A stretch of DNA of 60,370 bases from Methanosarcina sp. (GTDB taxonomy: Archaea; Halobacteriota; Methanosarcinia; Methanosarcinales; Methanosarcinaceae): contig JAMXLQ010000111.1 in the NCBI GenBank assembly GCA_024280975.1, forward strand, positions 1 to 60,370, given 5' to 3'. Numbering within the stretch: position 1 is the first letter of the stretch; every line of letters starts with the position of its first letter. Made by a program: the position numbers and the translations under genes. The notes under the pieces are model-generated. The model was not told the origin of the DNA and ran no database searches. It saw nothing but the letters and a program-made list of their open reading frames with translations. Below are positions 10,469 through 29,682 of the stretch, piece after piece.

Positions 10469-10494
10469 TTAAATAGTTAATATAAGTGGTTATT

Positions 10495-12517: not shown

Positions 12518-12520
12518 TCA

Positions 12521-12532
12521 ATTTTCCTTTAT
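12521..12532 (+). promoter_or_regulatory. Putative late promoter (portal)
   Basis: ATTTTCCTTTAT; TTAT 29 nt before ATG. Confidence 0.65.
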
Positions 12533-12557
12533 TACTATTTTTCGAAGTTCTTTATAT

Positions 12558-14315
12558 ATGCCTTTCCCATCTTCATTTTTTCCACAATTAACTTCAGAAA
12601 CTCCTTCAAAAGATACACAATCCTCTCCCGTAGGTGCAGGCGTAGCAAGCGCAACAGGAGACGAATATTTTTACTTTGAAAAGTTTATAAAGTGGATTCA
12701 AGAAACTAAAAATAAAATCCCCTATGCTACACCCGATTTAAGGCGAGAAGCCTTTGAAGCCGATCCATTGTTAAAAGGAACGGTTTTTCCATATCTTAAA
12801 AACGTTCTTCTACAAGGCTTCAAAATCCAGACAGCAGATAATAAACTCTATGCAGAAGCTATCAAGGAAATCACTGGCTACATCGAGTCAATCAACCTTA
12901 TGCAAGTATTCAGGGATGACTTTTTAGACTTTTTCATTCTTTCAGGTCACTCATACAGGCGCATGGATACAGACATCGACCAGAACGTCTGGTGGCTTGA
13001 AAAACTAGAGCCCTCTTCAATGTCTGTTTTTACTGATCCTTGGGATAGTAGCATAGTAGCATATCGACAGAAAGCACTTGTAAGCGAATCATGGTCAGAT
13101 TCGGGAGCAAGAACAGAACACACTTCATGGTTCATCCCCTATCAAAACAATCGGATGCCTATCCAAATAAAGGATATCTACGTAACTTATATTAATAATA
13201 GGGGAACTGGAAACGATTTAACGGTATTCGATCTTTTTCAGAGTTATCTAGCTAAATATAACATCATTGACACCACAAACCTGAGAATAGCATCATCAGA
13301 ACGCATTATAGCAATGCACAAGGATCAGAAGACACAGGCCTCTTATTATGATAATATCGACTCTCGAATAAATTACAAGCCTGCTCCAATTGACTCTATT
13401 TTACTTGCGATTTGGCTAAAAAGGCTCATGCTTTCGAATGCTCCTCACTTGGTATATATAGTCATTAATCCTTTTTTACACGCCAAATCCGGGATCCTAA
13501 AGGAAGGTAAAGACTCACTAGGTAATTCTATCATAACCTCTTCAGTTCCCCCTAAGCCATCTTCTGCTTTACAGGCCTCTAATCCTACAATGTATAATTC
13601 TATGTTGGAGAACTATAACTCCTGGACAAAGAGCATAGAAGAAGCGAAGAAACATATCATGAAAACTGTCAAAAACGGCGGTGTGTTCGCATCTGGCCCA
13701 GATTTGGAAATTAAACCAGTTGAATCTTCGAGAAACGCCGACTCCGTTTTTATCAAAAATATTATAGATTTCCTCAACGAGGAAATAGGGCAGGCCCTAG
13801 GCTTTCCGATGTCTCTCGTCCTGGCGACAGGCACAGAACTTGCCAGCTCAAGAAACATTCTTCAGAATTTTAATAACGTACACGCTGGTACACGGACAGA
13901 ATATGAATCAGTTGCAGACAAGCTTATTAGAATAAGGTTTGAAAAGAGTAGCTGGATAGGGATAACAACTGAAGAAGATAAGGATGGAAACGAGAAAGAA
14001 GTACAGAAGCCCTACACTCTAAAAGATATTCAAGCTCATTTTATCCTTGACACGCCCGACACAGCCGATCTACTGAACGAAGCTCAGGCATACAAGACCA
14101 AAGCCGAGACCTTGACCCAGCTTAAGGGAATTGGAGCCAGCACCGAAGACCTACAGGCATTAGGTGAGGAATGGGGCTTCGGTCTACTCGAATTAGGCAG
14201 CATGGATATACCTGTCAGAGATCTCCTCGAAATGCGAAACACTGACGCAATAGATGATACAGAATTCAGGAACCGGCTTAAACTCACAGAAAAAGCTCCC
14301 CAGGTCGCTGATTAA
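12558..14315 (+). CDS. Portal protein
   Basis: Position after TerL, size, IGQALGFPMSL motif. Confidence 0.85.
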   Translation: MPFPSSFFPQLTSETPSKDTQSSPVGAGVASATGDEYFYFEKFIKWIQETKNKIPYATPDLRREAFEADPLLKGTVFPYLKNVLLQGFKIQTADNKLYAEAIKEITGYIESINLMQVFRDDFLDFFILSGHSYRRMDTDIDQNVWWLEKLEPSSMSVFTDPWDSSIVAYRQKALVSESWSDSGARTEHTSWFIPYQNNRMPIQIKDIYVTYINNRGTGNDLTVFDLFQSYLAKYNIIDTTNLRIASSERIIAMHKDQKTQASYYDNIDSRINYKPAPIDSILLAIWLKRLMLSNAPHLVYIVINPFLHAKSGILKEGKDSLGNSIITSSVPPKPSSALQASNPTMYNSMLENYNSWTKSIEEAKKHIMKTVKNGGVFASGPDLEIKPVESSRNADSVFIKNIIDFLNEEIGQALGFPMSLVLATGTELASSRNILQNFNNVHAGTRTEYESVADKLIRIRFEKSSWIGITTEEDKDGNEKEVQKPYTLKDIQAHFILDTPDTADLLNEAQAYKTKAETLTQLKGIGASTEDLQALGEEWGFGLLELGSMDIPVRDLLEMRNTDAIDDTEFRNRLKLTEKAPQVAD

Positions 14316-15814
14316 TGCCTGAAACTCTTCTCAAAACTACAAAAATCAAGAAGCTCGAATCTAAATTCGATGCTCTCTTTGAGACCACATTACTTAAAGG
14401 AATCATCGGAGAGAAGCCAGAGAATTATAAGAAACAGGTCAAGTACTGGTTTAGTTCTAAAACTTTTGAAAAACAGATAGATAAGATAATTGATGACATA
14501 TATCTTACCTCGATTAGCTTCACAGATAAGCAAGTCAAAAAAGCTGTAAAATCGAGCTTGTTTATAGGCTCTACATTAAATCTTTACAGCGAGGCAGATG
14601 ATACTCCCTTAGTCCTGACAGAAGAGGCTGTCAGACAGGCAGACGATCTGGCCTCCGAGGTCGTGGACTCGATTGTTACAATGCTTAAGGACGAAGGAAT
14701 CTATAAGGAAAGTCCTCAAACCCTTGAGAAGCGAATAAGGGAACTATGGGGAGGCGAGAAGTACAGGTCTACGCGGTTTGTTCGGACATTTACGGCTGAT
14801 GTAGCGACAGCTACTACTTTGCACCGATACAAGCAACAGGAAATACAAGAATGTCAATTCTACGCTAAGATTGACGATAGAACGAGTCCTCAATGCAGAA
14901 TGCTTCACGGAACTGTTTTTAAAGTAGGTTCTCCCGAAGCTGATAAATACCACTGCCCCGCGCATCATCACTGCCGCAGTGCGATTTTACCTATTACAAT
15001 ATTTACAGAAGTTAACCCAGATTGGAGATATGAAAACCGTGATTTCACAAAACAAATGGATCAAAATTTCAAATTTACTGAAACCGAAGTCGATAAAAAA
15101 ATAATTGATAAAACATTCAAAAATATAGACAAGTTTAATGAAAAATACCGGATTGATAAGTTTATTCTCGATGAGGATCTACAAAAAAGATTTGTCAGAC
15201 TCGGAGTAGGGGTTAATGTCGAAGCACCAACTACAAAAGTAAAAACTCCAAAAGTTAAGAAAGAGACTAAAGTAGTTAAGGAGAAGCCTAAGAAAGAGGT
15301 TACGAAGACTCATAATGAAGTTGAAAATACCATTAGAAAACATGAAAATAAAATAAAGAACAGGAAGACCGAAAAGGTATATGTATTCGATAAAGACGGT
15401 AACATAGTATTTGAAAAGTCCGGTAATAAAAACAGTGTTAAATTTACACCAGATGAAGCAGAGTTATTAAAAGGAAACACTCTCACACACAACCATCCAA
15501 AAAGTTCATCTTTCTCAAAAGCAGATCTACAAACAGCATGTGTTAGGGAACTTAAAGAAGTCAGGGCAGCTACAAAAGACGGAACGTTTATAATAAGAAT
15601 GAAGGATGGGAGTGAGTTTAATAAAACTTTCTGGGACGAAACCCTTTCTACAGAATTTGATAAACAATTGAAAGCGGCTCGTATTAAACATGATATCCGT
15701 ATGATAAATAAAGAAATGACAAAAGATGAAAGCGTTGTTTTAACAAGTAAAGTGGTATGGGCTAAAGTATCTCAGAACATTCCTGAATTAGAATATAAAT
15801 TCGTTAAGTGGTGA
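14315..15814 (+). CDS. MuF/SPP1 gp7 head morphogenesis protein with C-terminal JAB/MPN-like domain
   Basis: [13 protein letters not shown]...CPAHHHCRS; Lys-rich linker; E...THNHP...FSKAD. Confidence 0.88.
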
Positions 15815-16038
15815 ATATGGAGGGGATGGATGATAGTGAGTTTGATTTTTGGTTTAGCGATGTCTGTACTTATTGTAAACATTTTGACATCGAAAAATCA
15901 AAACCAGAATCAAAGGGGAACGTCTGTGAAGCTTTCCCTGAAGGAATTCCTGACGAAATATGGTTAGGTAAAAATAATCATAAAAAGCCTTATCCTGGGG
16001 ATCACGGTATACAGTTCGAGCCTATTGAAAAAAGTTAA
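15808..16038 (+). CDS. Small metal-binding protein coupled to MuF (possible partner or immunity protein)
   Basis: CTYCKH...CEAFPEGIP...[13 protein letters not shown]. Confidence 0.75.
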
Positions 16039-16202
16039 TCTTTAAGAGGAGTTAATTGACATCTTTCTCTATGATGCTCGGGTATCTTAAGCTCTCCTCG
16101 ATTACATCTTTGATTTTTAGTACACCTTTCCCCATAAAAAATTGATCCGAAATTAGTACATTTACCTTGCCGCCAGAACTTGCAAAATTCACAGTTTACT
16201 AT
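16035..16202 (-). CDS. Cys-rich microprotein (ATA start)
   Basis: Read by hand: [24 protein letters not shown]...; GGAG SD. Confidence 0.5.
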
Positions 16203-16308
16203 TTTCTCAACTCCTAAAAAATCTTACTATAACACAAGCTCCACTGAGTACAATTATAGCTATAATTCCAGCATATATAAAACCGTCAATAACCATTCGC
16301 TCAACTCA

Positions 16309-16701
16309 TTAAAGCACATAATCACAAAAAATATGCGCTTCGATACTTAATCCTAATCCTATTATAGTCTCTATTGGAAAATCGATTCCGTATATTTTAA
16401 GAGGAACCCATAAAAAAGCTATTAAAATAAACGGGCCCCAAACAGGATTATGTAAAATTTCCCGATGTCCTGCGCTTTTAAAAGGGTGCCAGATATATTT
16501 AAAAATCATCCACCTGTTTGAAACACTGCTATCAGTATCAAGATCAGGACTGAGGAACAGAGATAAAATAAGAGCTCCAAAAAGAAACTTACCCAATGAT
16601 ATAAGCTCATCATAACCATGATCGTTAACACGTCCAAAAAAGTATATGATCGCTAGAACCCCAAGAAAGTAATTACTTTTATAATGTTCATTCCCATTCA
16701 T
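16309..16701 (-). CDS. DUF2227/YdjM-like membrane metal-binding protein
   Basis: G.EH, FLSPDLD, HR..LH, H..CD. Confidence 0.75.
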   Translation of the reverse strand: MNGNEHYKSNYFLGVLAIIYFFGRVNDHGYDELISLGKFLFGALILSLFLSPDLDTDSSVSNRWMIFKYIWHPFKSAGHREILHNPVWGPFILIAFLWVPLKIYGIDFPIETIIGLGLSIEAHIFCDYVL

Positions 16702-16835
16702 TCTGCCTCTTTCTTCAATTCTTGTATATTCAATGGCTCACATGCCGCCAAATAAGCTAATCGATGTTCAACCCATCCTTTCACTTCTGGCAGGCAGATA
16801 TTTTTTATAAGACATATATCACAAAACCCGGTCAA
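16698..16835 (-). CDS. Small Cys-containing protein
   Basis: Read by hand; GGAGG SD, TTG start, ATGA coupling. Confidence 0.5.
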   Translation of the reverse strand: MTGFCDICLIKNICLPEVKGWVEHRLAYLAACEPLNIQELKKEAE

Positions 16836-16845
16836 AACTGCCTCC

Positions 16846-17022
16846 TTATAAATTAATTTTTATTCCTAGCTCATTTATCGAAATATACGAACAAATAATA
16901 CTTATAATAAAACCCAACATAAGATCTCTATATCTCGATTTTAGAACATTTATACAAATGCCTCCGAGTAAAAAAGATATCACTAGAACCAAAACAAACC
17001 AAGGTACTATAATTAACGTCAT
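16846..17022 (-). CDS. Two-TM membrane microprotein
   Basis: Read by hand: MTLIIVPWFVLVLVISFLLGG...; GAGG SD. Confidence 0.6.
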   Translation of the reverse strand: MTLIIVPWFVLVLVISFLLGGICINVLKSRYRDLMLGFIISIICSYISINELGIKINL

Positions 17023-17031
17023 TTACATTCC

Positions 17032-17205
17032 TCAGATAACATGTTTATAGCCGATGAAATAGGCTACAAGAGAAATGATTATCATAAGTATTGAAAACTT
17101 TAAGTTTCTGAAGAATTTTCTTATAGAATATACAAGCTTGCTAAAAATAGACCTTTTCTTATAAGATCCTCTTGTGTAATTTCTTCGAGAATTATTGTGA
17201 AACAT
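17032..17205 (-). CDS. Basic membrane microprotein
   Basis: Read by hand; GAGGA SD; C-terminal TM. Confidence 0.6.
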   Translation of the reverse strand: MFHNNSRRNYTRGSYKKRSIFSKLVYSIRKFFRNLKFSILMIIISLVAYFIGYKHVI

Positions 17206-17219
17206 TTTATTCCTCTTTA

Positions 17220-17248
17220 TGTTAAGTAAATTAGGTATATACTTAACA
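17220..17248. promoter_or_regulatory. Palindromic operator 1
   Basis: TGTTAAGTA-N11-TACTTAACA, perfect, next to TATAAATA. Confidence 0.75.
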
Positions 17249-17281
17249 AAGTATAAATAACTTATTAACCTTCTAAACTAC

Positions 17282-19165
17282 ATGCAAAAAAACATTAAAT
17301 TATTCTCTTTACTGATACTTTTTTTATTACTTTCTGGAACTGCGGGAGCGGAAACCATTACTCTAAATCCTTGCAGCCAGGATGATATCAATACTGCCTT
17401 AAAAAACGCAGGCGAGAACGGAACGGTTATTCTTACTGCAGGAGAATACCCGCTTAAAGGTCCGGTATACGTTCCTCGAAATATCAATCTTATAGGAGAA
17501 CCCGGCGCGAAATTCTTAGTTTCAAGTGATATTTCAAGTCCTTGGTTTTCGCCTACGGTTGGAGCAGTAAATTTATTTGATCCTTTTAATAATACTGTAA
17601 AAGGATTCGAGATCGATGGCAACTGTTTAAAGTTAAATAATGATTGGGCTAATTCGCCCGGGCACGCTCACGACCAAGAGCAATTAATCAAGGCCATTGG
17701 GTCCAGAAACAACTTTGGAAAGAATATAATAATTTCAAATATGACCCTTCGTAATGCATTTGGAGACGGGATACAAGCACGTTGCATTGATGGAATTATA
17801 TGTGAAAGTAATACAATAATCAATTGCCAGCATGAGTCAATTTATTTCAGTGCTAGTAAACACTGTTTTGCTTTTTTTAATGAAATGGCTGTCATAACTT
17901 CCGATGGGGTAAGATATGATAACTGTTTAGAGGGGGAATCAAAAGGAAATAAAATATGGAAGTATTCAGGGGATTCTAACGGAGCTTATAAAGGAGGCGC
18001 GAACGGTTTTCAAGTGGGGGATGCTCAAGTTTCGAAAGGTTATGATGGTCGAAAAGATTGGATAACTACTAAAAATATTACGATTCATGATAATATAATA
18101 TCTGATCCAGGCAGGCAGGGGGTACTTCTTGATGATGTCAGTAGGAATCCTGCTTCAAATGTCTATGTTCATGATAACATCTTTGTAAACACGACAGAGC
18201 TTAGGACTATGGGCGTTCATGTTGATGACTACTCGATAAACAATCCACCATCAATGGAAGAGAGTGAGAAGATTTTCGAGAAGATTTACGACATTCAAAA
18301 TCTTCTTTCTCTTGAATATCCCGAGAATGCAGTCACACAACAGACTGCAGACCAATTTAGTTACAAGGTTATTGAAACCGAAAACGGAAAAATAGCAGGC
18401 GGAATCAAGATTTTAGGGTTCAATAACCTGAGTATAATTGATAATCAATCCTATATCTCAGATCCAAAGGACGCAATTATCAAAACAAGTGTAATAAGAA
18501 ATCCTTCTCTCGATCTCTGGTTTGGTGGCATTGAAGATATCCAAAGGGATGTCAATATCTCAATCGAAAACGATACCTTAACAGCTACAATGACTGTAAA
18601 AATGACCTGGTATAATTATCAAAGGAATAAGCTGGGAAAGTTAACTGCGGGAAAACTGCAGACTTCTATAGCTACTTTCAATGACTCTTACTATCCAGCT
18701 CCTCGGGTCATTGAGCAGCCTGCAGAGATCAAGGGTATAATCTATCAATACTCTGATCATTTTGATATCAAAGCTCTTAAGCAAGGTATCTGCAAGGACA
18801 TTACTTATCAGTCCGGAGATAATACTTCAAAACAGGTTTTTCTGGTCGGTACAAGGAACCAGACAGCCGAAGGTGTGAAATACACAGAATATTCCAGGCT
18901 TGAGCATTGGGAAGAGGAAGGAAATCTAACCCGGTTCGGTGATTGGATACAGGTAAATAGAACTTATGACCCTTCTATAATTCAGGTAACTGCTTCTACT
19001 CCTTATAAGAAATATCAGGTAACAGAATTTGAGATAATTGAAAAGGAAGCACCAAAAGAGCCTATTAATCCTTGGTTCTATGCTAAAATAGTGTTCTGGG
19101 TTTTCTTATCAATAACAATACGGTTCTACTGGAACGAGATAAAATCAATGTTTGGCATTGAGTGA
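17282..19165 (+). CDS. Secreted, C-terminally anchored right-handed beta-helix protein (disaggregatase-like)
   Basis: Signal peptide, FEIDGN, FGDG, IHDN repeats, C-terminal TM. Confidence 0.8.
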   Translation: MQKNIKLFSLLILFLLLSGTAGAETITLNPCSQDDINTALKNAGENGTVILTAGEYPLKGPVYVPRNINLIGEPGAKFLVSSDISSPWFSPTVGAVNLFDPFNNTVKGFEIDGNCLKLNNDWANSPGHAHDQEQLIKAIGSRNNFGKNIIISNMTLRNAFGDGIQARCIDGIICESNTIINCQHESIYFSASKHCFAFFNEMAVITSDGVRYDNCLEGESKGNKIWKYSGDSNGAYKGGANGFQVGDAQVSKGYDGRKDWITTKNITIHDNIISDPGRQGVLLDDVSRNPASNVYVHDNIFVNTTELRTMGVHVDDYSINNPPSMEESEKIFEKIYDIQNLLSLEYPENAVTQQTADQFSYKVIETENGKIAGGIKILGFNNLSIIDNQSYISDPKDAIIKTSVIRNPSLDLWFGGIEDIQRDVNISIENDTLTATMTVKMTWYNYQRNKLGKLTAGKLQTSIATFNDSYYPAPRVIEQPAEIKGIIYQYSDHFDIKALKQGICKDITYQSGDNTSKQVFLVGTRNQTAEGVKYTEYSRLEHWEEEGNLTRFGDWIQVNRTYDPSIIQVTASTPYKKYQVTEFEIIEKEAPKEPINPWFYAKIVFWVFLSITIRFYWNEIKSMFGIE

Positions 19166-19192
19166 ACTATTTTAATTATTTTTTCCTTTTTC

Positions 19193-19273
19193 TGTTAAGT
19201 AACTATGTAATATACTACACAAATTATAAATACTTTCAATGAGTTGTTAAGTAAAAGAGCAATTTGCTTAACA
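19193..19273. promoter_or_regulatory. Palindromic operators 2 and 3 flanking a TATA box
   Basis: TGTTAAGTA-N11-TACTACACA (19193-19221) and TGTTAAGTA-N11-TGCTTAACA (19245-19273). Confidence 0.75.
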
Positions 19274-19298
19274 AGGAGATGAAAAAATACAAACAAAA

Positions 19299-19661
19299 AT
19301 GATAAAAATGTTTCTTTCCATGATGTGCCTCTTTATGCTGTTTGTTCCCATGATCGCTGCAGCAGAAGAAGACAACTCGGGAGCTTTAAGATTAAACGAT
19401 TTTATAAAACCCAATGCAGCAAAGGAAGAATTAAACAATTCGGCTTTCAGCAAACCAACCGAAAAAGCCAGTAATTGGGGAACCATCGCTTTAATAGTGA
19501 TAGTAGTTCTTTATTTTGCAGGATGTGTATATAAATACTATACAGGAGATGACGAAGAAAGATCAAATGCATTTAAGGGGCTTTTTGTGGGGGTAATCGT
19601 CCTAGTTCTTTTCATGGCATGTACTTCAACCGCTTTGGATGCTCTTACGTGGCAATACTGA
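19299..19661 (+). CDS. VirB2/TrbC pilin-like protein
   Basis: Signal peptide plus two TM helices joined by a GDDEERSNAFKGL loop; gene context. Confidence 0.6.
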   Translation: MIKMFLSMMCLFMLFVPMIAAAEEDNSGALRLNDFIKPNAAKEELNNSAFSKPTEKASNWGTIALIVIVVLYFAGCVYKYYTGDDEERSNAFKGLFVGVIVLVLFMACTSTALDALTWQY

Positions 19662-19678
19662 CTCTATGGAGGGCGTAA

Positions 19679-20719
19679 ATGAAAAGGTATCGAATATTCT
19701 CTTTTTTTATTTTACTTATATTTTTCATTTCTTTGGTATCTCCTGCTTGTGCTAGTCCTATAGATACGAGTATAGAAGTAGTGTCAAGAGGGATAGAACA
19801 GTTTATAGAATACCGCGCTGAAAGAAATTTACAGGAAAATTATGGAGTGACTTTTGGAAACACTAGCGATTCTGAAAGCCTCACCCCGGCTCAAAAAGTA
19901 GTTTATATGATTGCGGTAGCAAACCAGAGCCCATATGAAACAAAATGGGTTCGAGATCAGTTAGCCTCTGATTTTGTTTGGTTTTCTGTAGCTGTATTTT
20001 TTATTTCGCTTTTTACTTTCGGGCTGTCAATGCTTCAAAAAAACATGCCTGAAACAGTAGAGAAGATAAATAAAAAATTCATCGGGCATAATGAGGTTTA
20101 TGATTATACCGTCTGGCTGGAAACACTTTTTAAACTCGTAGGGCTTGCTATCCTGGCATTACCTATAATAGCTGAAATTTTAGAATTTGAACAAAATTTA
20201 AGCTCCGGTTTGACACTCAATGCTTTTGAGTTCTTGAAAGTTACTCCTGCAGCTCCAAACGTTTACTTTTGGGAATCGTGGGCTTATGGGTTTTGTGCTA
20301 GGTTCTTCTTGTTTAGGATTGAATATATTGACTTATTCGCGGCTCATGTTTTCAAAATTATACTAATGTTCTGTGTAGCATTGTTTTATTCCGAGTACAT
20401 AGCAAAAATATTAACAGCTTGGTTTTTATCGGCTGTTTTCATGCGTCCTCTTGTTTTGTGGTACTCGAATGTAGCGATAAAAGATATTGCAAATACTTAC
20501 CCACAAACTAATTCGAGTATAGGTGACATAGTTGCGATATTCGACTTAAAAAGTGTAGCTTATCATGATATGGGTATGGTACTTTTTGCCAGTGTGATAA
20601 CTGTTATCATTGCTTTACTCTGGCCTGTTATCATGGCGATAATCGAGATAGTATGTGGGTTCCTGCTTAACGTAATTCTAAAAGCTGCTAGAATTTTAAG
20701 ATATACAAGGGGGTTATGA
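19679..20719 (+). CDS. VirB6/CedA-like polytopic membrane protein
   Basis: Signal peptide, several TM segments, position before VirB4. Confidence 0.55.
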   Translation: MKRYRIFSFFILLIFFISLVSPACASPIDTSIEVVSRGIEQFIEYRAERNLQENYGVTFGNTSDSESLTPAQKVVYMIAVANQSPYETKWVRDQLASDFVWFSVAVFFISLFTFGLSMLQKNMPETVEKINKKFIGHNEVYDYTVWLETLFKLVGLAILALPIIAEILEFEQNLSSGLTLNAFEFLKVTPAAPNVYFWESWAYGFCARFFLFRIEYIDLFAAHVFKIILMFCVALFYSEYIAKILTAWFLSAVFMRPLVLWYSNVAIKDIANTYPQTNSSIGDIVAIFDLKSVAYHDMGMVLFASVITVIIALLWPVIMAIIEIVCGFLLNVILKAARILRYTRGL

Positions 20720-20720
20720 T

Positions 20721-21602
20721 ATGACTGAAAATGAATCAACGCCTTTGACGATTACCAGAAAAATAGATATTACATTTTACAGCTTAAGGAAAAATCAGCA
20801 ATACCTTTTGATGTTTTTACTTTTTTTACTAAGTCTTACTCTATTAATCGGTATCCGTTTGGTAGGATATAGTCTGACGAATAAAATAGCTCTGGTTCAA
20901 GCTGTAATAGAGGTTCTTGTATTCCTCTATATTGGTCGGAGTCCTGCAAGACTTTACCGATTTGAGAAATATTTCAGGTTCCTTGTATCAATGCAGACAG
21001 GCGAGGACACGGTAGAGAAGTATGCTGAAAAGGGACTTAAGAAAGTGCGAGACGTAAGCAACATTAAAAAAATACATTTTGGTGGATTCGTTGAATACTT
21101 CTATAGTAAAAAGAAACCTAACAATTGGGCGGTATTCTTCGAGTTACAGGCATTCAAACCAGATAAAATAGTTTCATTCCTTCAACAGACTGAAAAGATG
21201 TTCATGGGATTAGAGGACGGAGCGGTCTTAAAAACCACAATGACGGTACGAGACGACCTTAAAGACTACGCCGAGCCTATAAAATCAGCTTTGAATAAAG
21301 ATCAAATGCCTCTGATAGTCAGACAGTCTATGTATGAACATCAGGAGTATATCAAAAATGCCAAAATAAAGACTTATGGTAATTACATGGTCTATTACCT
21401 ACCTTATACTGCTTCTAAAAAAGAAGCTACGAAAAAACTGAAAATAGCTTCTAAAAATATCTCAAGGGCATTGAGAGACAATAAAATAAAGCACAAAAGG
21501 CTTAAATGGGCTTGGCAGATTCATAAAGTTTTTCACGGTGTCGTAACTTACAATTATCATGATTCAACAGGGGGCCACTTTGAAGATGAAGATATTATCT
21601 AA
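20721..21602 (+). CDS. VirB3/PrgI-like membrane protein
   Basis: Two N-terminal TMs plus soluble domain, immediately before VirB4. Confidence 0.5.
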   Translation: MTENESTPLTITRKIDITFYSLRKNQQYLLMFLLFLLSLTLLIGIRLVGYSLTNKIALVQAVIEVLVFLYIGRSPARLYRFEKYFRFLVSMQTGEDTVEKYAEKGLKKVRDVSNIKKIHFGGFVEYFYSKKKPNNWAVFFELQAFKPDKIVSFLQQTEKMFMGLEDGAVLKTTMTVRDDLKDYAEPIKSALNKDQMPLIVRQSMYEHQEYIKNAKIKTYGNYMVYYLPYTASKKEATKKLKIASKNISRALRDNKIKHKRLKWAWQIHKVFHGVVTYNYHDSTGGHFEDEDII

Positions 21603-24342
21603 ACGACTTAAAAAGTATCTTTTCGAGGCTTGTCATGGGTCATTCTTAGAATTGTATGACAATATAATGCTTAAGTGGGAACTATTCAACAAAGGAGAAG
21701 CTGAAAGGCTCATGTTATCCATGTCGTCACTGCAATGCTGCCCAGCTAAACTACAGGCTACTACAGATGGACTCGGAGTCAAGATTAATGAATATCAAGA
21801 CATGGATCTTTTTACAATAGCAGTATCAGACGAAGTAGACCCCACACAGACAGCAATTAAGTATAGTGCTGATCTGCAAACAATTGATAGAGTATACGAG
21901 ATTGCGAAAGAAAAGCATGTAGATTTTACAGTCACTCAGATTATTTATAAGCCAAGTAACGCTGAGATCAATAAGGAGAACAAGAACGAAAAGAAGAAGA
22001 TACAGACAGCAAGGAAAACAGAGTTAAAACAAGGGGGGCAAGCTTCCGATGTCTACGATTGGCAAGAGGATGACATAAGATCGTTTTTCGCTCAGTCTTA
22101 CAAAGGCGAACATTCCATTTTAAAACAGCTAGTAATAGCAGGTATAAGCACCCCAAACGAAGACGAAACGGCTTATACAATCTCTGAAACACAAACAGAG
22201 TTTAAAAGCTCTGGAATTAATACAGACTCTTGTTTCGGCGGACAGATCAGGGCTTTAAAGGCTCTCATCCCTTCAAATGAGATAATGAAAGAGCATATGA
22301 TTACAGTACTTTCTAATACTGCAGCAGCTTTCTGGCCTGGGAGAACCCCGATAAAAACAATAGATGATTTTGGCGTTCATATTGGTTATCTTGACGAGGG
22401 CAAAGATGCCGGAATACCTCTGTTTTGGAACCCTGATAATCCTCTAATTGAAAATGCAAATATGGCGTGTTTGGGAAGTTCTGGGCAGGGCAAGACTACT
22501 TTGGTTCTGAACTTGTTAAAAAACGCTGTGGCTTCTAATATTGGGTTTTGGTACTTAACTCCCAAACAAGACTTCGGGACCGATGCAGTAAATTTTATTA
22601 AAGCTTTGAAAGGTAATTTTATCAGTGTTGGACCCAAAGGAAAGGGATTGAGACCGCTTAAGATAATCTGGGACCCTCTAATTCATGGAGACAGTTCAGA
22701 ATCCATGTATTCAGCTTATGTTAAGAAAAAGGAAGAAGCTTTATACTTTTTCTATATGTTGATAGGCTCTGCTTTTAGTTCTCCGATGCAGAAAGCTTGT
22801 AAAAAGTCTTTAACCGGGTTTTACATCAAGGAAGGTTATCTGGACAATGATAAAAATCCCGTTAACCCTGATAAATGGAAAGATCCAAAGTCTATTCCGA
22901 GAGTACGAGATTATGCTCAGTTAGTAAAAGAATGGTCAACAGATGAAGATCCCGAGCATAAACAAATGAGACCTTCGCTTAAAGCATTACTTGGGTATCT
23001 GGTAGACTTTGAAAAGGGGGAGTCTCTTTACTGGATGGATGAAGATTTAGAAGAAAACGAAAATGAGTTCGATATAACTAACCGTTATACCGTTGTCGAT
23101 CTATCGGATATTCCAGAAAAATATCAAGATGCTATTACGGTACTTTTAGTTAGCTCGATTAATTCTAAGATAAAAGTACACTCTAAAGAGGCATTAGAAA
23201 GGAAAGGAAGGTACATAATAGCCTTTGATGAAGCTCCTAAGATTTTGAAAAATCAGGGTATGCAGGAATTTTTACCGGCTTTAACCAGGGAAATACGGTC
23301 TTCTGGAAATAGCCTTCTATTAATCGGTCAGGATATGAAAGGAATGAAACCCATCCTGCCAGTGATAAAGTCCAATTGTGCCTCTATTATCTTTATGTGT
23401 GGAATGGAGGGAGCAGATATAAATGAGCTTGCTGGAGAGTTCCCCATAGATGATGATGATAGGAAGTATTTATCACGGGCTGGGAAAGGCAGGTTCTATT
23501 TTTACGGTAAGAGGAGAGTACCAGGGAGAGTTATTCCATTACAGACCGAAAAGAAAGTATTCTTCGGTGAAGATGTTCAAGAAGGTTCCGAGGACTCAGA
23601 AGAAAATAGTGAAATACCACTATCAAGAGAGGACTATTTCGAACCAGAATACGAGCTAATTCATCCCGGCCTAAAGTATGTTGTCGATACTTTTGGAGTA
23701 CTCAATAAGAACTGGATAAAGAAACAGAAGAACATTGAGATCAAGGGATTTACCATGAATTCAGATATCTATCCAGCAGTTGATTATTTCTCAAAAGTAA
23801 ACTACATTTCAAATGACATTGCTTCCCTCGAAAAAATCAACGGAGAAACACCGGACCACTGGGTAACAAAATGTTTAGATGGTGGAGCTGCGATTCTTGC
23901 AGAAAATGACGATGTTATAATTAATTCATGGGGAGATCAAGGAGGGGAAGAGGACCCAGATGTAACTTACCGGCGAAAAGACGGCACAAGAGTAGGGCAT
24001 GAATACGCTCACCCAGGCAGCCGGAGTATAGGGAAATTGAGAAAACAGAAAAATGACCAGATTAAATATTGTGATATCTGGCGGTGTATCTGCCAGCAGA
24101 AAAACGAATCAGAAGTTAAAGCTGCAGTAAACGAAGAACGAGTTAAAGGCGCAGTCGGTGAGGATTTCTGCATAACAAGAGGAAAAGCGTTAGGTAATTA
24201 TTTCAAAGCAGAAAAAGAATTAAATTTGAGGTATAAGGAGTCCTCTTCTCCTAAACAAAAGGACGAGAATAGCACAAGAATTAATTTAGAGGTCGGAGAA
24301 GTCGCCGCCGCAAAGGATACTCTATTAGAGGTTGAGGCTTAG
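21559..24342 (+). CDS. virB4: VirB4-family ATPase with C-terminal nuclease-like domain
   Basis: ENANMACLGSSGQGKT, YLTPKQDF, VVDLS, IIAFDEA, REIRS...IGQ; 927 aa. Confidence 0.85.
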   Translation: MIQQGATLKMKILSKRLKKYLFEACHGSFLELYDNIMLKWELFNKGEAERLMLSMSSLQCCPAKLQATTDGLGVKINEYQDMDLFTIAVSDEVDPTQTAIKYSADLQTIDRVYEIAKEKHVDFTVTQIIYKPSNAEINKENKNEKKKIQTARKTELKQGGQASDVYDWQEDDIRSFFAQSYKGEHSILKQLVIAGISTPNEDETAYTISETQTEFKSSGINTDSCFGGQIRALKALIPSNEIMKEHMITVLSNTAAAFWPGRTPIKTIDDFGVHIGYLDEGKDAGIPLFWNPDNPLIENANMACLGSSGQGKTTLVLNLLKNAVASNIGFWYLTPKQDFGTDAVNFIKALKGNFISVGPKGKGLRPLKIIWDPLIHGDSSESMYSAYVKKKEEALYFFYMLIGSAFSSPMQKACKKSLTGFYIKEGYLDNDKNPVNPDKWKDPKSIPRVRDYAQLVKEWSTDEDPEHKQMRPSLKALLGYLVDFEKGESLYWMDEDLEENENEFDITNRYTVVDLSDIPEKYQDAITVLLVSSINSKIKVHSKEALERKGRYIIAFDEAPKILKNQGMQEFLPALTREIRSSGNSLLLIGQDMKGMKPILPVIKSNCASIIFMCGMEGADINELAGEFPIDDDDRKYLSRAGKGRFYFYGKRRVPGRVIPLQTEKKVFFGEDVQEGSEDSEENSEIPLSREDYFEPEYELIHPGLKYVVDTFGVLNKNWIKKQKNIEIKGFTMNSDIYPAVDYFSKVNYISNDIASLEKINGETPDHWVTKCLDGGAAILAENDDVIINSWGDQGGEEDPDVTYRRKDGTRVGHEYAHPGSRSIGKLRKQKNDQIKYCDIWRCICQQKNESEVKAAVNEERVKGAVGEDFCITRGKALGNYFKAEKELNLRYKESSSPKQKDENSTRINLEVGEVAAAKDTLLEVEA

Positions 24343-24388
24343 AGCCTTTTCTTTTCTCTTTCTTTTCTCTTTCTTGGGAGTAGATGAG

Positions 24389-24823
24389 ATGGGTGTTAAG
24401 GTTATTTATAAAGGAACTGAACATAATTTAGTTCAGATGACAAGAGTTGTAAAGTCTGACGATTCAGACGCAAAAGGCGAATATCATTCTATTAATTTAG
24501 ATGAATGGAAAGAAATTGAATGTCATATAATCGATGGAAAAACTATCAATGTTGGGCGTGAGTATGGAAGGCAAGAAGCTATAATCTTTATTCAAGTTAG
24601 GCAGGAAGGCAGAACAGAAATATGCAATAATTTTAAATTGTTTCATAAACAAGATTGGATAGAATACAGAAAAGAGAGAGGCAGAAACAAGTATAAAAAG
24701 ACACTAATTCAAAAAACTGGTATAATCTGGGTTGGGGCTACAAGCAAAGAAAAAGGTATATACGGTTTTAAAGTTTTTATAGAGAATGGAGGAAATCATG
24801 ACCACATTAAACAAGAAAATTGA
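24389..24823 (+). CDS. Protein with two DUF2080/AbrB-like repeats
   Basis: GGAG SD before ATG 24389; internal repeats resemble ORF 56601. Confidence 0.6.
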   Translation: MGVKVIYKGTEHNLVQMTRVVKSDDSDAKGEYHSINLDEWKEIECHIIDGKTINVGREYGRQEAIIFIQVRQEGRTEICNNFKLFHKQDWIEYRKERGRNKYKKTLIQKTGIIWVGATSKEKGIYGFKVFIENGGNHDHIKQEN

Positions 24824-25250
24824 AAAAACTTTGAACATTAAAATAGATCATAGAATATTATATGCTCTAGGGATTCTAATAATAAGCTGTTTGGCGGTTA
24901 GTGCTCAAAATGTTACTAAAAACAGTCAAGATATTGGGCCAATTTCAGCGGTTACAGAACAGCCCAATCAAAATACTGAGCTTTTTGATACTGATTCTGT
25001 AGAGAATCTTATCCAGAACATGCAAGCGGGGTATATTACTGCAGGAGAAGCCAAGAACGAAATTTTGGATATTAGATTTTATGCTAAGCAAAGAACTTCA
25101 CTTACTCCAGTAGAAATGGGGGTAAATAAGCGATATGTGGCTTATCTCAATGCTGCAATCGACGCGACAAATGCTTTCTCTTTTGGGAAAAATTCAAAAG
25201 AATTTCAAAATTCTTTAACCGAGATGGAAAATAAGAAAAATTTAATTTAA
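24786..25250 (+). CDS. Membrane-anchored or secreted protein
   Basis: Hydrophobic segment ILYALGILIISCLAVSA. Confidence 0.65.
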   Translation: MEEIMTTLNKKIEKTLNIKIDHRILYALGILIISCLAVSAQNVTKNSQDIGPISAVTEQPNQNTELFDTDSVENLIQNMQAGYITAGEAKNEILDIRFYAKQRTSLTPVEMGVNKRYVAYLNAAIDATNAFSFGKNSKEFQNSLTEMENKKNLI

Positions 25251-25279
25251 CCTTTCTCTTTTCTTTTAAAAAAGTAAAA

Positions 25280-25840
25280 TTAAGAAAGAACAGCCGTAAT
25301 CGTCTTCCCAGCATTCTCTTTCCCTAAACAAGCATTTCCATTTTCATCTAACTTGATACCGGAAGCATAGTAAACAGGCTTCTCGGAAGTTGCAGCCCAA
25401 TTAAGAGCCCCAAAAGTCTTTTTTGTGAAAATCGACTTCTCAACTTTTGGAGTGCTTGCAATCTTCTCAGGAGTTAACGGAGCTTCCGGTGTGACCTGCT
25501 CAGGAGTGCTCACAACTTCTTGTGAAGAGCTACCAGGGCCAGAGTCTGCAATAGATATATCTTCTGTCTTCTCAGCATCTTTTATGGCCTGTCGGTCTTG
25601 TGCATCTTGATAGGCTTTATTGTCCTGAGTGGGAGTTTCAACAGGAGTTTCAATTTGAATATCAGTCGGGGTCTCCTTTGGCTTTTCTTCATTTGTTGGA
25701 GTTTCCTTCGGTGTCTCCACTGGAGCAACCGGAGTTGAATTACTCGAATTATACGAACCATGAACAGCTAAAGAGCCAAAAAGAAAACAGAGACCAATTA
25801 CAGCCAGGATGAATGCAGGATCTTTTATGTCTATCGTTAT
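25280..25840 (-). CDS. Membrane-anchored protein with P/E/T-rich stalk (ATA start)
   Basis: Frame open to ATA 25840 after GAGGTGA, adding an N-terminal TM; ETP repeats. Confidence 0.65.
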   Translation of the reverse strand: MTIDIKDPAFILAVIGLCFLFGSLAVHGSYNSSNSTPVAPVETPKETPTNEEKPKETPTDIQIETPVETPTQDNKAYQDAQDRQAIKDAEKTEDISIADSGPGSSSQEVVSTPEQVTPEAPLTPEKIASTPKVEKSIFTKKTFGALNWAATSEKPVYYASGIKLDENGNACLGKENAGKTITAVLS

Positions 25841-25872
25841 GAAATCACCTCAAAAATTTAAAAAATAGAAGA

Positions 25873-26346
25873 TTAAACTGTTATCCTAGCCTCTGCCGGA
25901 CCAACCCAACAAGAACAACTCTTACACTTCACCGACAAAACAATAAGGTAGTTACCCTTTGACAAAGCCGAATTAAATCCACCACAAGATTTTGTATAAC
26001 CTACTAACTTCCAAGAACATTTCCCACTGGTGCAGACCTGCTTATAAATTGACCAATAACAGCCTACTGTTTGACCTTTTGAAGTGTTCCTAAATTGATA
26101 TTTTCCATTCTGTAGACAGTACTTAAACGAGGCAGTGCATCCATTCTTTGTTACTGTTTTATCGCATGCTTTCCAAGTACATGTTGCAGCCGTAGCTTTT
26201 GCAGTCGTGGAACAAGTTGATCCAGAAGGACAAACCGCCTTCGAACTTCCTGAGCAAGAAGAGCCTGAGGCATTAGGACAGGCAGCCAGGGCAGGCACGG
26301 TCAAAAACAATACACAAAATATTGTCAATATAGCTATATTTCTCAT
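25873..26346 (-). CDS. Secreted Cys-rich protein with PKD-like C-terminus
   Basis: Signal peptide, 16 Cys, ASF...QFRNTS...YWS...GNY.IVL.V. Confidence 0.75.
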   Translation of the reverse strand: MRNIAILTIFCVLFLTVPALAACPNASGSSCSGSSKAVCPSGSTCSTTAKATAATCTWKACDKTVTKNGCTASFKYCLQNGKYQFRNTSKGQTVGCYWSIYKQVCTSGKCSWKLVGYTKSCGGFNSALSKGNYLIVLSVKCKSCSCWVGPAEARITV

Positions 26347-26531: not shown

Positions 26532-27542
26532 ATGAATGGGGAATCTCCACCTAAAATTTACATCACCGAGCCGTTAGGCTCTTTACAGTCTTTTCTTCCT
26601 GAAAAACTCAAAAACGGCGATCTGCGGATGGCAATAGCTTGTGCTGGTCAACATGCTTATAATATGTGGGGAGAACAGGCAACCCTCACAGAAGAATTCC
26701 TTTCTAGGGACTATAAAACATGGGAAGGCGGCCTTGTTTCCATCAATCATGAACAGAATCAGCCCTGGGTCAAAGCCAGGATGTATAATCTTGAGTATGA
26801 TGCTGAGAAAAAACTTGTAATAAGCTCATTTTCAGGCATCCCGGAATGGCTTATGAGCCTGATTTATTCTGAAGATTACCGGGGCTTGTCTCAGGAATGT
26901 ATACCTATTGAGATGAGAAAAAATTCTACTGATGTAATCAAAGGCTACGGCACAGGCTGTACTATTGTTACTTCTCCTTATGAACCGGCAGCAAATCAGG
27001 GTATGGGAGTAGGGATACCCCCGGCTCTTGCTGCTATTCTTGCTTCAAAATATCCACAAAAAGAGGATTCTATGCCAAACAACAACGGAGACGGTAAAGC
27101 CGTCATATCGATAGAGACGTACGAAAAGGATGAGCTCAAGAGTCAGGTCAAGGCTCTTGAAACAGACAACAAAAAGAAGGATGAGGAAATTGCTTCCTGG
27201 AAACAGAAGTACACAGAACTCGAATCCGGAGAAGTTGACAGGACTAAAATTGCCATCTCAGAAGCCAGAAAGTCTTGGGAAGCTGAACTCAGGGCAACCG
27301 CAGAAAAAGAAACCGCAATAACTGACCTAAAATCAGTCATGAGCGAGGATGCAGCAAAAGAATACCTCTCTACCAATCCGACAGTTGATCAGATCAAGAG
27401 TATAACCAAGGTTCTTAAGGTCAGTTTCTCGAAGGGCGTAGGCAGCAATCAGAACAACGAACCAAAAGCAGAAAACAAGAACATGTCCTGCCAGTTTGAG
27501 CCTGACCCATGGACCGGAAAACTTAACGCTGAGGTGAAATAA
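26532..27542 (+). CDS. Prohead protease/scaffold
   Basis: SINH...GLSQE (His/Ser) followed by coiled coil; position. Confidence 0.75.
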   Translation: MNGESPPKIYITEPLGSLQSFLPEKLKNGDLRMAIACAGQHAYNMWGEQATLTEEFLSRDYKTWEGGLVSINHEQNQPWVKARMYNLEYDAEKKLVISSFSGIPEWLMSLIYSEDYRGLSQECIPIEMRKNSTDVIKGYGTGCTIVTSPYEPAANQGMGVGIPPALAAILASKYPQKEDSMPNNNGDGKAVISIETYEKDELKSQVKALETDNKKKDEEIASWKQKYTELESGEVDRTKIAISEARKSWEAELRATAEKETAITDLKSVMSEDAAKEYLSTNPTVDQIKSITKVLKVSFSKGVGSNQNNEPKAENKNMSCQFEPDPWTGKLNAEVK

Positions 27543-28423
27543 TGGTCGAAACTGGATATTCTGACCCTAAAAATGTAATTTTCCCTCTCGGAATCACTGA
27601 CAGGGTAGAAAAGAATGTCGAAGTTGCGATCTATCCAGGCAGGCTCGTAATGGTAGGGACTACAGGCTTTGATGCGAAGCCCACGAACTGCCTGAAAGAG
27701 CCCATCGGATATGCAGATTACGAACGGGTTAACATGATTGACAAGCCTGCAACAATGACCACAGCATATGCAACAAGCGTAACCGCTCCTATATGCTCCG
27801 CAGTAGGCAAACCTGTTTTCATGCCTACCGGGCTTCCTATCGGATTCAAGGCAGAAGAGGGGGATTATGCTATTCCCTGGGGAACAGCCGGACAGGTAGC
27901 TCCAGCCGTTGAAATTGGTGGAAAAATCGCTCTGAAAGTTCCTTTTGTCAAGAAAACTTCTGTTTTCGATACTGGAATAGACTTTCCAGGAGGAATTCTG
28001 ATTCCAGACGCTCTCATAGACGTTTCTACCGCCGCGAGTGGTGCTACTATCGATGTCGGATTCATCAACGCGGTTGAATCAGGAGACGAAGATGGACTTC
28101 TCGATGGGGAAGCTGCTGCAACAACGGGCCTTCAGACTCATATCACTGTAGATGCTACAGCCGGAAATATCACACTCGGTGCTTACCTGAAGAGTGTTTT
28201 AGCTGAAGCAAATGGCGGAAGTGCTACAAATCTTGCAGTCCAGAAAAAATACCTGACAGATGGCACTATCAAAAGCCTGTGTTACACGACTTCAAACCAC
28301 ACGATAACCGGTTGGATCTACATCTTCGTCGAAAGTCCTGGCCTTGTGAAAGTGGGGAAGTTCAAGTATGCCGTCGATGCCACAAGCGCAGCACAGAACT
28401 GCATGTTAATGAGTGAGATCTGA
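27542..28423 (+). CDS. Head decoration/cement protein
   Basis: IYPGRLV..GT motif; between scaffold and capsid genes. Confidence 0.6.
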   Translation: MVETGYSDPKNVIFPLGITDRVEKNVEVAIYPGRLVMVGTTGFDAKPTNCLKEPIGYADYERVNMIDKPATMTTAYATSVTAPICSAVGKPVFMPTGLPIGFKAEEGDYAIPWGTAGQVAPAVEIGGKIALKVPFVKKTSVFDTGIDFPGGILIPDALIDVSTAASGATIDVGFINAVESGDEDGLLDGEAAATTGLQTHITVDATAGNITLGAYLKSVLAEANGGSATNLAVQKKYLTDGTIKSLCYTTSNHTITGWIYIFVESPGLVKVGKFKYAVDATSAAQNCMLMSEI

Positions 28424-28435
28424 GGAGGAAAAGAC

Positions 28436-29335
28436 ATGATACTTAACCCATACGAAAGAGCAGGCACAGCTTACACCAAAATGATGAAACCTTTCTTGAC
28501 TCCCCGGATGATTGCCAGGAACCTGTTCGCCCACACAATCAGACTTCCGAAGGGGAAAGTAAAACTGGACTTCAATAAAGTTTCGCAAATGAAGGATGCA
28601 ACTATTCAATTGACATTACCCGACGATACTCTGAAAAGAGACCTTATCGGCCTGTCCTCCGACTCCATCAGATGTCCTTTCGTTGTGAACGGCTTTGAGA
28701 TTACTCAGGACCAGCTTCAGGCTTTTGCATCTGAAGGAACTGACCTCCCAAATGAAGGCATCAAGGCGATGAGCCAAACCCTTTCTGCAAAAGACCAGAC
28801 TCTTCTGCTCGATTCCTACAAACCAAATGGAACCGATGCAATGTTTAAGGGCCTCTATGCGAGTGCAACCACTATTGACAACACCGCCTATGATTTCGGA
28901 ACTGCTGGGAAAGCTTCAGAGGGAACTGCTGCAATCGTGGGACTCCTACAAGAAGCTATAGTCGAGGACTGCAACTTCAATATGTTGATTTCATACGCAC
29001 AGCTCACGACTCTGAAGAACTCTTGGATTGTTGGCTCGGGAACTGGAATATGGGAAATCGAAAAGGTAATCAAAAACCTGAATCCGGTTGAAGGAGCTGC
29101 GCCAGGTCGCATATATGCCTCAAAATATGCTCCCTCTGCAACAAAGGCAATTATAAGCCCGAACGATCCAGCAGGTATGTATATGGACCTTGTAATCGGG
29201 CAAGACCCGAGAGTCATTACAGGTTTTGACTCAAAACTCGGTCCTGATGATTCCCCGGTCTATGTAACGGGCTTTGAAGCTGTCGTACCTCTGATCTACT
29301 ATCCAGAGGCAATCGGTATTCTGGGGTCGATCTGA
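28436..29335 (+). CDS. Major capsid protein (HK97 fold, encapsulin/linocin-like)
   Basis: IARNLF, MDLVIGQD, PLIYYPEAI; position and size. Confidence 0.85.
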   Translation: MILNPYERAGTAYTKMMKPFLTPRMIARNLFAHTIRLPKGKVKLDFNKVSQMKDATIQLTLPDDTLKRDLIGLSSDSIRCPFVVNGFEITQDQLQAFASEGTDLPNEGIKAMSQTLSAKDQTLLLDSYKPNGTDAMFKGLYASATTIDNTAYDFGTAGKASEGTAAIVGLLQEAIVEDCNFNMLISYAQLTTLKNSWIVGSGTGIWEIEKVIKNLNPVEGAAPGRIYASKYAPSATKAIISPNDPAGMYMDLVIGQDPRVITGFDSKLGPDDSPVYVTGFEAVVPLIYYPEAIGILGSI

Positions 29336-29655
29336 TGTCTTTGTACCGAGCACTCGTAAATATCAGACTGGCTGACGGGAGAACGGTTTCTCCCAAAACT
29401 GGCACTTTTGAGCTGTCCGACGCAGAAGCTTCGAAACTTGAGAAATGGTGGATTGCTCCTGCTATTCAACCTCTCGGTCCCGGACTTGCTGATGAGATTG
29501 TCGAGCAGCAGGCAAAGGACATAGAGGGACTTAAGAAAACAATCGAAGAGAAAGACAAGCAGATTCTCACCCTGCAGAACATTATCAACTCAAAAGAGGC
29601 TGATATCGACAGGCTGAAAAAAGTTCAAACGGCTACACAAGCCGTTAAAAAGTAA
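29335..29655 (+). CDS. Capsid-adjacent small protein with coiled coil
   Basis: Coupled to capsid stop; ELSDAEA motif. Confidence 0.65.
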   Translation: MSLYRALVNIRLADGRTVSPKTGTFELSDAEASKLEKWWIAPAIQPLGPGLADEIVEQQAKDIEGLKKTIEEKDKQILTLQNIINSKEADIDRLKKVQTATQAVKK

Positions 29656-29682
29656 TTTTTTTTGGGAAGGAGGGTGGGAATT

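Follow-up and report, generated by a model that had tools for sequence, protein, structure and literature searches.

A T4SS-type cassette in a tailed-virus genome

The window analysed here (60,370 nucleotides of Methanosarcina sp. DNA, GenBank assembly GCA_024280975.1, contig JAMXLQ010000111.1) spans the whole of contig C111, which belongs to an incomplete genome (G000, completeness 76%), and it represents a complete-looking tailed-virus genome with a seven-gene cassette under purifying selection (17282-25250, + strand) that resembles a type IV secretion system (T4SS). We propose with moderate confidence that the cassette exports the virus's own DNA to touching cells from a non-integrating, plasmid-like virus. 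A more tentative proposal is that archaeal phage-plasmids exist which are also conjugative, spreading both in particles and by their own four-part T4SS, with a VirB4-nuclease fusion in place of the coupling protein and relaxase.

Searches of Pfam and PHROGs revealed TerS, TerL (E 2e-98), MuF, neck, tail terminator, tail tube and tape-measure genes in the window, together with an MCM helicase and methyltransferases. The window was assigned to the tailed viruses (Caudoviricetes) because a single genome unites genes for the terminase, head morphogenesis, the neck, the tail tube and the tape measure. Methanosarcina is its likely host, as judged from the organism that is given as the source of P0006, a VirB4 homologue of 73% identity, and from the disaggregatase-related domains in several virus proteins.

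Sequence comparison firmly identified the 927-amino acid ATPase (21559..24342, + strand, Walker A at residue 306) as VirB4. The NCBIfam model NF045975 matched residues 130-648 at E 1.3e-24, whereas the CedB model reached E 4e-5 (22 bits against a cut-off of 700); the protein falls below the NCBIfam cut-offs, yet VirB4 was best among all families tested. A profile of 11 sequences found Thermoanaerobacter VirB4 first among the PDB entries (4AG5, E 4.3e-33), followed by DotL (4e-10) and HerA-type proteins (2e-7 or weaker). Consistent with this, the best Foldseek match of the ATPase was 4AG6 (E 5.6e-13), obtained with a poor full-length model (predicted local distance difference test score, pLDDT, 52) that was used for this match alone. 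The earlier note had allowed that the ATPase might group with HerA, FtsK or packaging ATPases; all three identities were rejected, since VirB4 ranked first by profile and fold, and a terminase PHROG match covers the Walker A stretch only.

The remaining genes of the cassette point to the other parts of a T4SS. The last six of the seven genes are tightly packed (gaps of 17, 1, -44, -11 and -38 bases). The VirB2-like pilin of 120 amino acids (19299..19661, + strand) has a signal peptide and two transmembrane segments, and matches NF045849 (E 6.4e-5) and PF18895 (E 0.0018), both below cut-off; PF18895 was also detected in four of eight pilin homologues at E 2e-4 to 0.1. The VirB6/TrbL-like polytopic protein of 346 amino acids (19679..20719, + strand) has six hydrophobic segments and no match in Pfam, NCBIfam or the PDB sequences; the ESM Atlas offers as a lead TrbL/VirB6 clusters at 0.85-0.89, with all ten best family hits in one clan, and the nearest ESM cluster (0.90, 86 members) has Uroviricota as its commonest phylum. 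The VirB3/PrgI-like protein of 293 amino acids (20721..21602, + strand) consists of two transmembrane segments plus a soluble domain. One of its six homologues matches PrgI (E 0.002), and a VirB3-like protein is fused to the N-terminus of VirB4 in three relatives (G407, G435 and G408; E 1e-14 to 1e-17). The idea that its soluble domain duplicates part of VirB4 found no support. Of the T4SS core named in the earlier note, VirB4 stands firm, while VirB2, VirB3 and VirB6 are supported by weaker evidence and by the gene order pilin-VirB6-VirB3-VirB4. The list of open reading frames (ORFs) placed all five genes of that note where it had put them, on the + strand.

The last two genes encode small proteins. 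A soluble protein of 163 amino acids (24332..24823, + strand), conserved in seven aligned loci and in a further virus (G455), is a candidate DNA-binding regulator or auxiliary factor with a presumably AbrB-like look; its profile matches a small ORF elsewhere in the window (56601-56753, E 6.5e-4). This ORF and another tiny one at 51152-51331 resemble AbrB/DUF2080-type DNA binders. The 154-amino acid single-transmembrane protein (24786..25250, + strand) has homologues after VirB4 in G061, L031, L033, G035 and G455 (G, C and L numbers are our handles for genomes, contigs and loci). PDB sequence searches with profiles of the pilin, VirB6, VirB3, the C-terminal domain of VirB4 and the 163-amino acid protein gave no useful match.

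The first gene of the cassette encodes a surface protein of 627 amino acids (17282..19165, + strand) with a signal peptide, a right-handed beta-helix (about residues 26-320), a C-terminal domain (346-626) and a C-terminal membrane anchor. It matches PF13229 (E 1.2e-5), and for the L031 homologue a match to Disaggr_assoc (PF08480, E 5e-25) was obtained. Given these beta-helix and disaggregatase-related matches, methanochondroitin hydrolysis is a putative activity. The C-terminal domain was detected in 18 of 19 proteins tested, the single miss being a VirB6 ORF. Half of these 18 surface proteins also possess the beta-helix, and all nine are Methanosarcina-type copies (the genus of three metagenomic or viral copies being deduced), whereas the nine copies of other genera are 298-383 amino acids long and have no beta-helix. 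This distribution fits a methanochondroitin matrix that is described as unique to Methanosarcina in PMC12369344.

The motif TGTTAAGTAA, picked after a repeat search, occurs three times in the window (17220, 19193 and 19245), against 0.13 expected by a subsequent calculation, and none of 100 shuffles reached three. Two of the three sites form a 29-bp palindrome. One palindromic operator-like site (17220..17248) lies just upstream of the TATA-like box TATAAATA (about 17252) of the surface gene, and two sites (19193..19273; an imperfect one at 19193-19222 upstream of the box and a palindromic one at 19245-19273) flank the TATA-like box of the pilin operon. The palindrome GTTAAG-N15-CTTAAC was found twice in the window and nowhere else in the genome. 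In L031, 29-bp palindromes of changed sequence occupy the same three places; the site before the pilin gene is kept in G061 and varied in L031 and L033, and no similar site was recognised in G455. The operator motif of the earlier note, said to be shared by all the genes, is thus repeated as claimed but precedes two promoters and not each gene. A dif-like reading was rejected because the left arm does not fit the dif consensus.

The C-terminal domain of VirB4

Scans for PF12696 and for HUH motifs revealed neither VirD4 nor an HUH relaxase in the window, in agreement with the earlier note. VirD4/TcpA (PF12696) was detected in none of five genomes or records, and no second VirB4/VirD4-like ATPase was seen among the window ORFs; HUH motifs were absent from the ORFs of the window and G061, and relaxase families from a Pfam scan of the 68 window ORFs. 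Likewise, the four virus contigs that carry the cassette (the window and three described below) showed no VirD4, HUH relaxase or tyrosine integrase.

However, calling the cassette "relaxase-less", as the earlier note did, overlooked the C-terminal domain of VirB4 (residues 695-886, H767, D801 and E815; 23641..24216, + strand), which is predicted to have a restriction-endonuclease fold (PD-(D/E)xK-like). No known relaxase was found, but the term may be half true, since this domain is a candidate DNA-processing function. The domain lies beyond the ATPase and is kept in VirB4 homologues only 18-21% identical overall. Its model, built from a 76-row alignment, reached a pLDDT of 92.5. In the VIA structure comparison, five of 48,161 chains attained Z 8, the best being the small subunit of R.BspD6I (Z 9.0, root-mean-square deviation 3.2, 117 aligned). 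PD-(D/E)xK nucleases filled most of the 20 best rows, and CRISPR ancillary nucleases were among the fold matches; Foldseek returned the same families, none at E 0.001.

Key residues were counted in the 79 rows, among 158 proteins, that cover all three columns, fragments and non-matching rows being excluded. The results showed His in 79, Asp in 78 and Glu in 79 rows, and Glu (53), Ala (16), Gln (7) or other residues (3) at the third acidic position. The clade of the window reads EYA, not EYE (16 of the 79 rows), and the same 16 have Q where 62 others have K. Because of these two changes, the active site may be dead in this clade, and cutting of DNA by the domain is uncertain there. It may only bind in the window's clade, the cut being made by another nuclease, or double-stranded DNA may be sent.

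Among 2,339 proteins compared with the domain, MobC scored best apart from the query itself, yet with an hmmsearch E-value of 0.08 and an hhalign probability of 2.8% (E 0.016). It aligns with the domain at the same His, Asp and Glu-x-Glu. The MobC motif continues from D-x(n)-E-x-E to a Tyr with a functional role; near its position Leu stands in 56 of the 79 rows and Tyr is not kept. PF13814 (Replic_Relax) did not match the domain and exceeded its cut-off in none of 151 genomes. Identity with Replic_Relax was rejected, the sole pointer being an ESM lead at 0.76 with 11% of members. To judge from sequence, the domain would work, at most, like a MOB_C relaxase without being a member of MOB_C.

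The fusion may be wide in archaea, since Nanobdellota supply more of its domain's ESM neighbours than any other group and distant ATPases with a similar C-terminal domain exist (P0098, P0153 and other weak matches, one named from a Diapherotrites archaeon). A lone homologue of 132 amino acids was also observed in G061 (C1:40842-41240; L014:2842-3240, - strand; E 6e-9); it lacks the Glu-x-Glu motif and is possibly a decoy or regulator.

The domain bears on two alternatives. The cassette might carry no DNA and instead form an adhesive pilus or secrete protein, altering aggregation or blocking superinfection, as the VirD4-less T4SS Trw and Ptl do according to PMC12857230; the large surface protein and the altered active site in the window's clade are compatible with this. 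Against it, a nuclease-fold domain with family-wide invariant H, D and E sits on the motor and shows a ratio of nonsynonymous to synonymous substitution (dN/dS) of 0.085 relative to G061, and we regard a function without DNA cargo as rather unlikely. The second alternative is an anti-virus defence, in which a membrane ATPase-nuclease destroys the DNA of competing viruses like HerA-partner systems. An ATPase with a PD-(D/E)xK domain is a common layout in defence, HerA complexes are among the lower matches, and morons often bear defence genes. Nevertheless, the ATPase is VirB4 and not HerA, and its pilin, VirB3-like and VirB6-like partners occur in fixed order, which makes a defence role improbable.

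Setting and distribution of the cassette

The cassette lies between two groups of virion genes. The packaging genes on its left (10486..16038, + strand) comprise TerS, TerL, a putative portal gene, MuF (14315-15814, PF04233) and an ORF of 76 amino acids, and the head and tail genes on its right (26532..49381, + strand) comprise a putative protease and capsid, neck, tail terminator, tail tube, tape measure and beta-helix tail proteins. The labels portal (12558-14315), protease (26532) and capsid (28436-29335) derive from position, none being named by Pfam or PHROGs; the genes at the capsid and portal positions match proviral genes weakly, and the protease gene, too, has proviral homologues.

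The 76-aa ORF, which ends at 16038, also follows MuF in the proviruses of G029 (63%) and G027 (56%), and the left border near 16035 given by the earlier note is therefore correct. These related integrated proviruses gave no match to the VirB4 profile and lack the cassette. In G027 the gene at the protease position begins about 400 bases after the 76-aa ORF, and in G029 the two are separated by other genes spanning about 3.5 kb. Since the spacing differs and both lack VirB4, the interval is a slot for added genes.

Five ORFs at the edges of the slot lie outside the conserved cassette and on the - strand, so that the description of the block as all co-oriented holds for its core only. The left group (16309..17205), oriented divergently, consists of a YdjM/DUF2227-like protein of 130 amino acids (16309-16701, PF09988 E 4.9e-12) and two ORFs of 58 (16846-17022) and 57 amino acids (17032-17205). 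The right group (25280..26346), which is convergent, consists of a Pro/Thr/Glu-rich membrane-anchored protein (25280-25720), whose frame is open to 25849 with no common start codon, and a secreted 157-amino acid protein very rich in Cys (25873-26346). Only the YdjM-like gene has homologues in the loci compared (elsewhere in G061 and G455); for the two right-hand proteins none was found in the loci and genome compared.

The integrity of the region was examined with contigs of three soil runs from one study (X1-X3). The left border is bridged by contig records at 15371-17612 and 15802-16221 and the right border by 25330-26929 and 25789-27251; the region is covered at even depth and without joints. 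The runs possibly derive from the source sample, and this result therefore serves as an assembly check and not as an independent occurrence. The seven cassette genes are under purifying selection by sequence comparison with G061, with dN/dS of about 0.04-0.27, ratios that are rough because synonymous sites are near saturation. Chimeric assembly and decay, both of which the earlier note had raised against itself, were ruled out by the bridging contigs and by these ratios together with the open frames. A recent insertion of an integrative and conjugative element (ICE), a decayed remnant or an assembly chimera would fit the foreign genes that the slot of G029 also holds and the broken cassette copies in G005, but the intact frames, the selection, the bridged borders, the occurrence in four different viruses and a GC content like that of the rest of the virus make this very improbable.

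The cassette was found in three other tailed viruses, two of which keep it in the packaging/head region. In G061 (75,260 bases) the seven genes are 44-79% identical and lie on the opposite strand beyond TerL; its terminase differs from that of the window and no match to the capsid of the window was found. G455 (73,512 bases, CheckV 100%), in which the VirB6 gene is split across the contig ends, shares TerL (57%), the putative portal (53%) and the protease (71%) with the window and bears the cassette, oriented as in the window, within the roughly 29 kb that separate putative portal from protease. In G427:C1 (44,496 bases, with end repeats of 55 bases), pilin, VirB6, VirB3 and a VirB4 of 22-24% identity lie in the interval from TerL to portal; a quick, midpoint-rooted tree sets this virus apart from the clade of the window. 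A small serine resolvase is encoded by G061 and G455, and Cdc6 also by G061.

Parts of the cassette occur at six additional metagenome loci. Among 59 genomes of the genus, 42 gave some VirB4 match, 12 of them at E 1e-13 or better and the remaining 30 to a short stretch of another ATPase; none of the genomes assembled in one or two contigs holds the cassette. Across the class, 15 of 301 genomes encode the C-terminal domain, and the full library contained 83 representatives at E 1e-10 or better. The company of the cassette varies: it follows an integrase, ERCC4 and a Prim-Pol gene in G407:C27 (first 20 kb annotated), adjoins Prim-Pol in G060, G435 and G407:C49, and is intact but surrounded by housekeeping genes in G026, G019 and G076, where neither replication nor integration genes were seen close by. 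Such patchy spread and mobile-element company fit a mobility module, and the simplest account is that viruses and ICE-like elements of Methanosarcinales share it. In L017 (G008:C49), L026 (G011:C112) and L117 (G400:C63) the cassette adjoins Cdc6/Orc1, as in G061, which may link these copies to the orc-type Methanosarcina plasmids described in the preprint 10.64898/2026.10.06.756670.

Wider searches returned little. VirB4 and capsid queries found nothing among genome contigs, and protease and portal queries against viral sequences gave one weak match and none, respectively. Among 50,697 phage records there were seven unannotated fragments of 4-13 kb, 20-22% identical over the ATPase part only, and none of 72,556 plasmid records matched the nuclease-fold domain.

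Several further features were also noted. Beta-helix, PKD and disaggregatase-related proteins are encoded among and after the virion genes (29662-34109, 47894-49381 and 52300-53709), with similar sets in G061 and G455. A second head module related to that of the window (protease 53%, capsid 37%) adjoins host-like genes at G000:C87:1668-6832 and probably represents what is left of a provirus there. G061 carries RNA ligase, thymidylate kinase and thymidylate-synthase-like genes (L014:7552-12154), possibly for DNA modification, and G060:C86 contains a small integrated element unrelated to the cassette (L085:11380-18059; integrase, resolvase, short P-loop ATPase and possible capsid-like genes).

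Proposed export route, its alternatives and known systems

In the proposed export route, the VirB2/VirB3/VirB4/VirB6-type proteins would assemble into a pilus and a channel through the membrane of the infected cell. VirB4 would act as motor and DNA loader, its predicted nuclease-fold domain binding and perhaps nicking the substrate. The anchored surface protein may span the S-layer, its beta-helix binding or loosening methanochondroitin so that aggregate cells touch, and the palindromic sites at two promoters would switch the cassette separately from the virion genes. We infer the plasmid-like state, the DNA cargo, its export and the matrix role.

The plasmid-like state is suggested by the absence of a tyrosine integrase, the identical contig ends and the virus's own MCM. 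PF00589 was detected on none of the four virus contigs (14 of 14 controls were positive), and neither Pfam nor PHROGs revealed an integrase in the window. Both contig ends are identical over 15 nt, and the window thus agrees with phage-plasmids in an integrase-free, circular genome. The virus has a tRNA-Val(TAC) gene (60134-60209); the host tRNA-Val(TAC) on C13 gave no BLASTn match at E 1e-3. Use of this gene as an attachment site was rejected, as BLASTn matched it nowhere else in the genome and there was no loose end at the site. A long imperfect inverted repeat directly after the MCM gene (9145-9237), also present in C87, is a possible origin or terminator.

No ParA-like Walker A protein or partition ATPase was seen among the window ORFs. 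The cassette could then be a lytic-cycle device whose channel passes new genomes to aggregate neighbours during productive infection, with no plasmid state; the missing integrase and partition ATPase and the packaging/head-region position in three of the four viruses agree with this. The cassette has its own promoters and operator-like sites, however, lies on the opposite strand in G061 and recurs on elements without recognised virion genes, and such a device seems somewhat more improbable still than a defence role.

A further alternative is DNA import or chromosomal exchange of the Ced/Ted type, in which the channel takes up neighbours' DNA as a lysogenic-conversion trait. The earlier note had called the island Ced-like, and it does combine VirB2, VirB6 and VirB4 without VirD4 or HUH relaxase, the same minimal set as Ced/Ted (PMC9905601); in addition, orphan chromosomal copies exist and the CedB model matches at E 4e-5. 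The closest profiles, by contrast, are those of monoderm conjugative VirB4s (1e-24 against 4e-5), and the Ced models did not match the membrane proteins of the cassette. Furthermore, a VirB3-like subunit and a fused nuclease-fold domain are present, and the cassette is patchy, mostly on mobile elements and absent from the one- or two-contig genomes among the 59. Import is accordingly unlikely, though not negligible. Export is favoured because monoderm conjugative VirB4s match best and the cassette travels on mobile elements.

Several observations weigh against export by conjugation. According to PMC12857230, self-transmissible archaeal plasmids such as pT33-3 require VirD4 as well as VirB4, and T4SS without VirD4 take up DNA, export proteins or mediate adhesion. 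Stable maintenance as a plasmid is conjectural, and the virus could be lytic, since no partition ATPase was seen in the window. The orphan copies in G026, G019 and G076 fit a host-useful, Ced-like role. The VirB6, VirB3 and VirB2 assignments all fall under curated cut-offs, and the EYA motif with its K-to-Q change, the weak MobC scores and the unmatched PF13814 described above count on the same side.

The single parts are of known kind. Their combination was absent from the literature searched and, apart from weak ATPase matches, from the phage records, as was the domain from the plasmid records. The literature searched yielded neither a methanogen virus with a reported T4SS nor a reported fusion of VirB4 with a nuclease, a negative on which subscription papers and supplements may bear, and the main text of the preprint 10.64898/2026.10.06.756670, supplements aside, does not contain the word VirB4. 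A second, particle-free spread was unreported for any virus of this kind in the literature searched. If the proposal of conjugative phage-plasmids is true, the VirB4-nuclease would supply a missing DNA-processing step of archaeal conjugation, and the virus would be the first that conjugates by itself. The fused domain is a concrete, assayable candidate for the missing archaeal relaxase. A contact route would suit hosts in matrix-bound aggregates and would move genes among methanogens, and the cassette could give a conjugation tool for Methanosarcina genetics.

Among known systems, the monoderm conjugative T4SS (MPF_FA/FATA; NF045975, NF045849, PrgI, TrbL, 4AG5) have the same operon of VirB4 with pilin-, VirB6- and VirB3-like genes and an adhesin-like surface gene. 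The cassette differs in lacking VirD4 and a stand-alone relaxase, in the nuclease-fold tail of VirB4 and in its carrier, a tailed virus. The Ced (Sulfolobales, Aeropyrum) and Ted (Thermoproteales) systems share VirB2, VirB6 and VirB4 without relaxase or coupling protein, and are chromosomal, domesticated importers according to PMC9905601, whereas the cassette resides on viruses and other mobile elements, includes a VirB3-like subunit and a nuclease-fold domain fused to VirB4, and shows a weak match to CedB.

Archaeal conjugative plasmids and ICEs (the pNOB8 family, pT33-3 and thaumarchaeal ICEs) share VirB4, VirB6, VirB3 and the lack of a recognisable relaxase, but encode VirD4 and make no virions, unlike the virus described here (PMC12857230 and PMC6563490); no relaxase is known for archaeal conjugation according to these two sources and PMC9905601. 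The MOB_C/Replic_Relax proteins (MobC of CloDF13-like plasmids, TraX of pAD1) have the same restriction-endonuclease fold, and H, D and E-x-E align with MobC; the similarity is not significant, and PF13814 is unmatched, the domain is fused to VirB4, the window reads EYA and the MobC Tyr is not kept. Finally, no phage-plasmid is known to be conjugative according to a 2025 review (PMC12282955), and the phage-plasmids P1 and N15 that it covers have the same integrase-free, circular tailed-virus genome with its own replication genes as the virus of the window.

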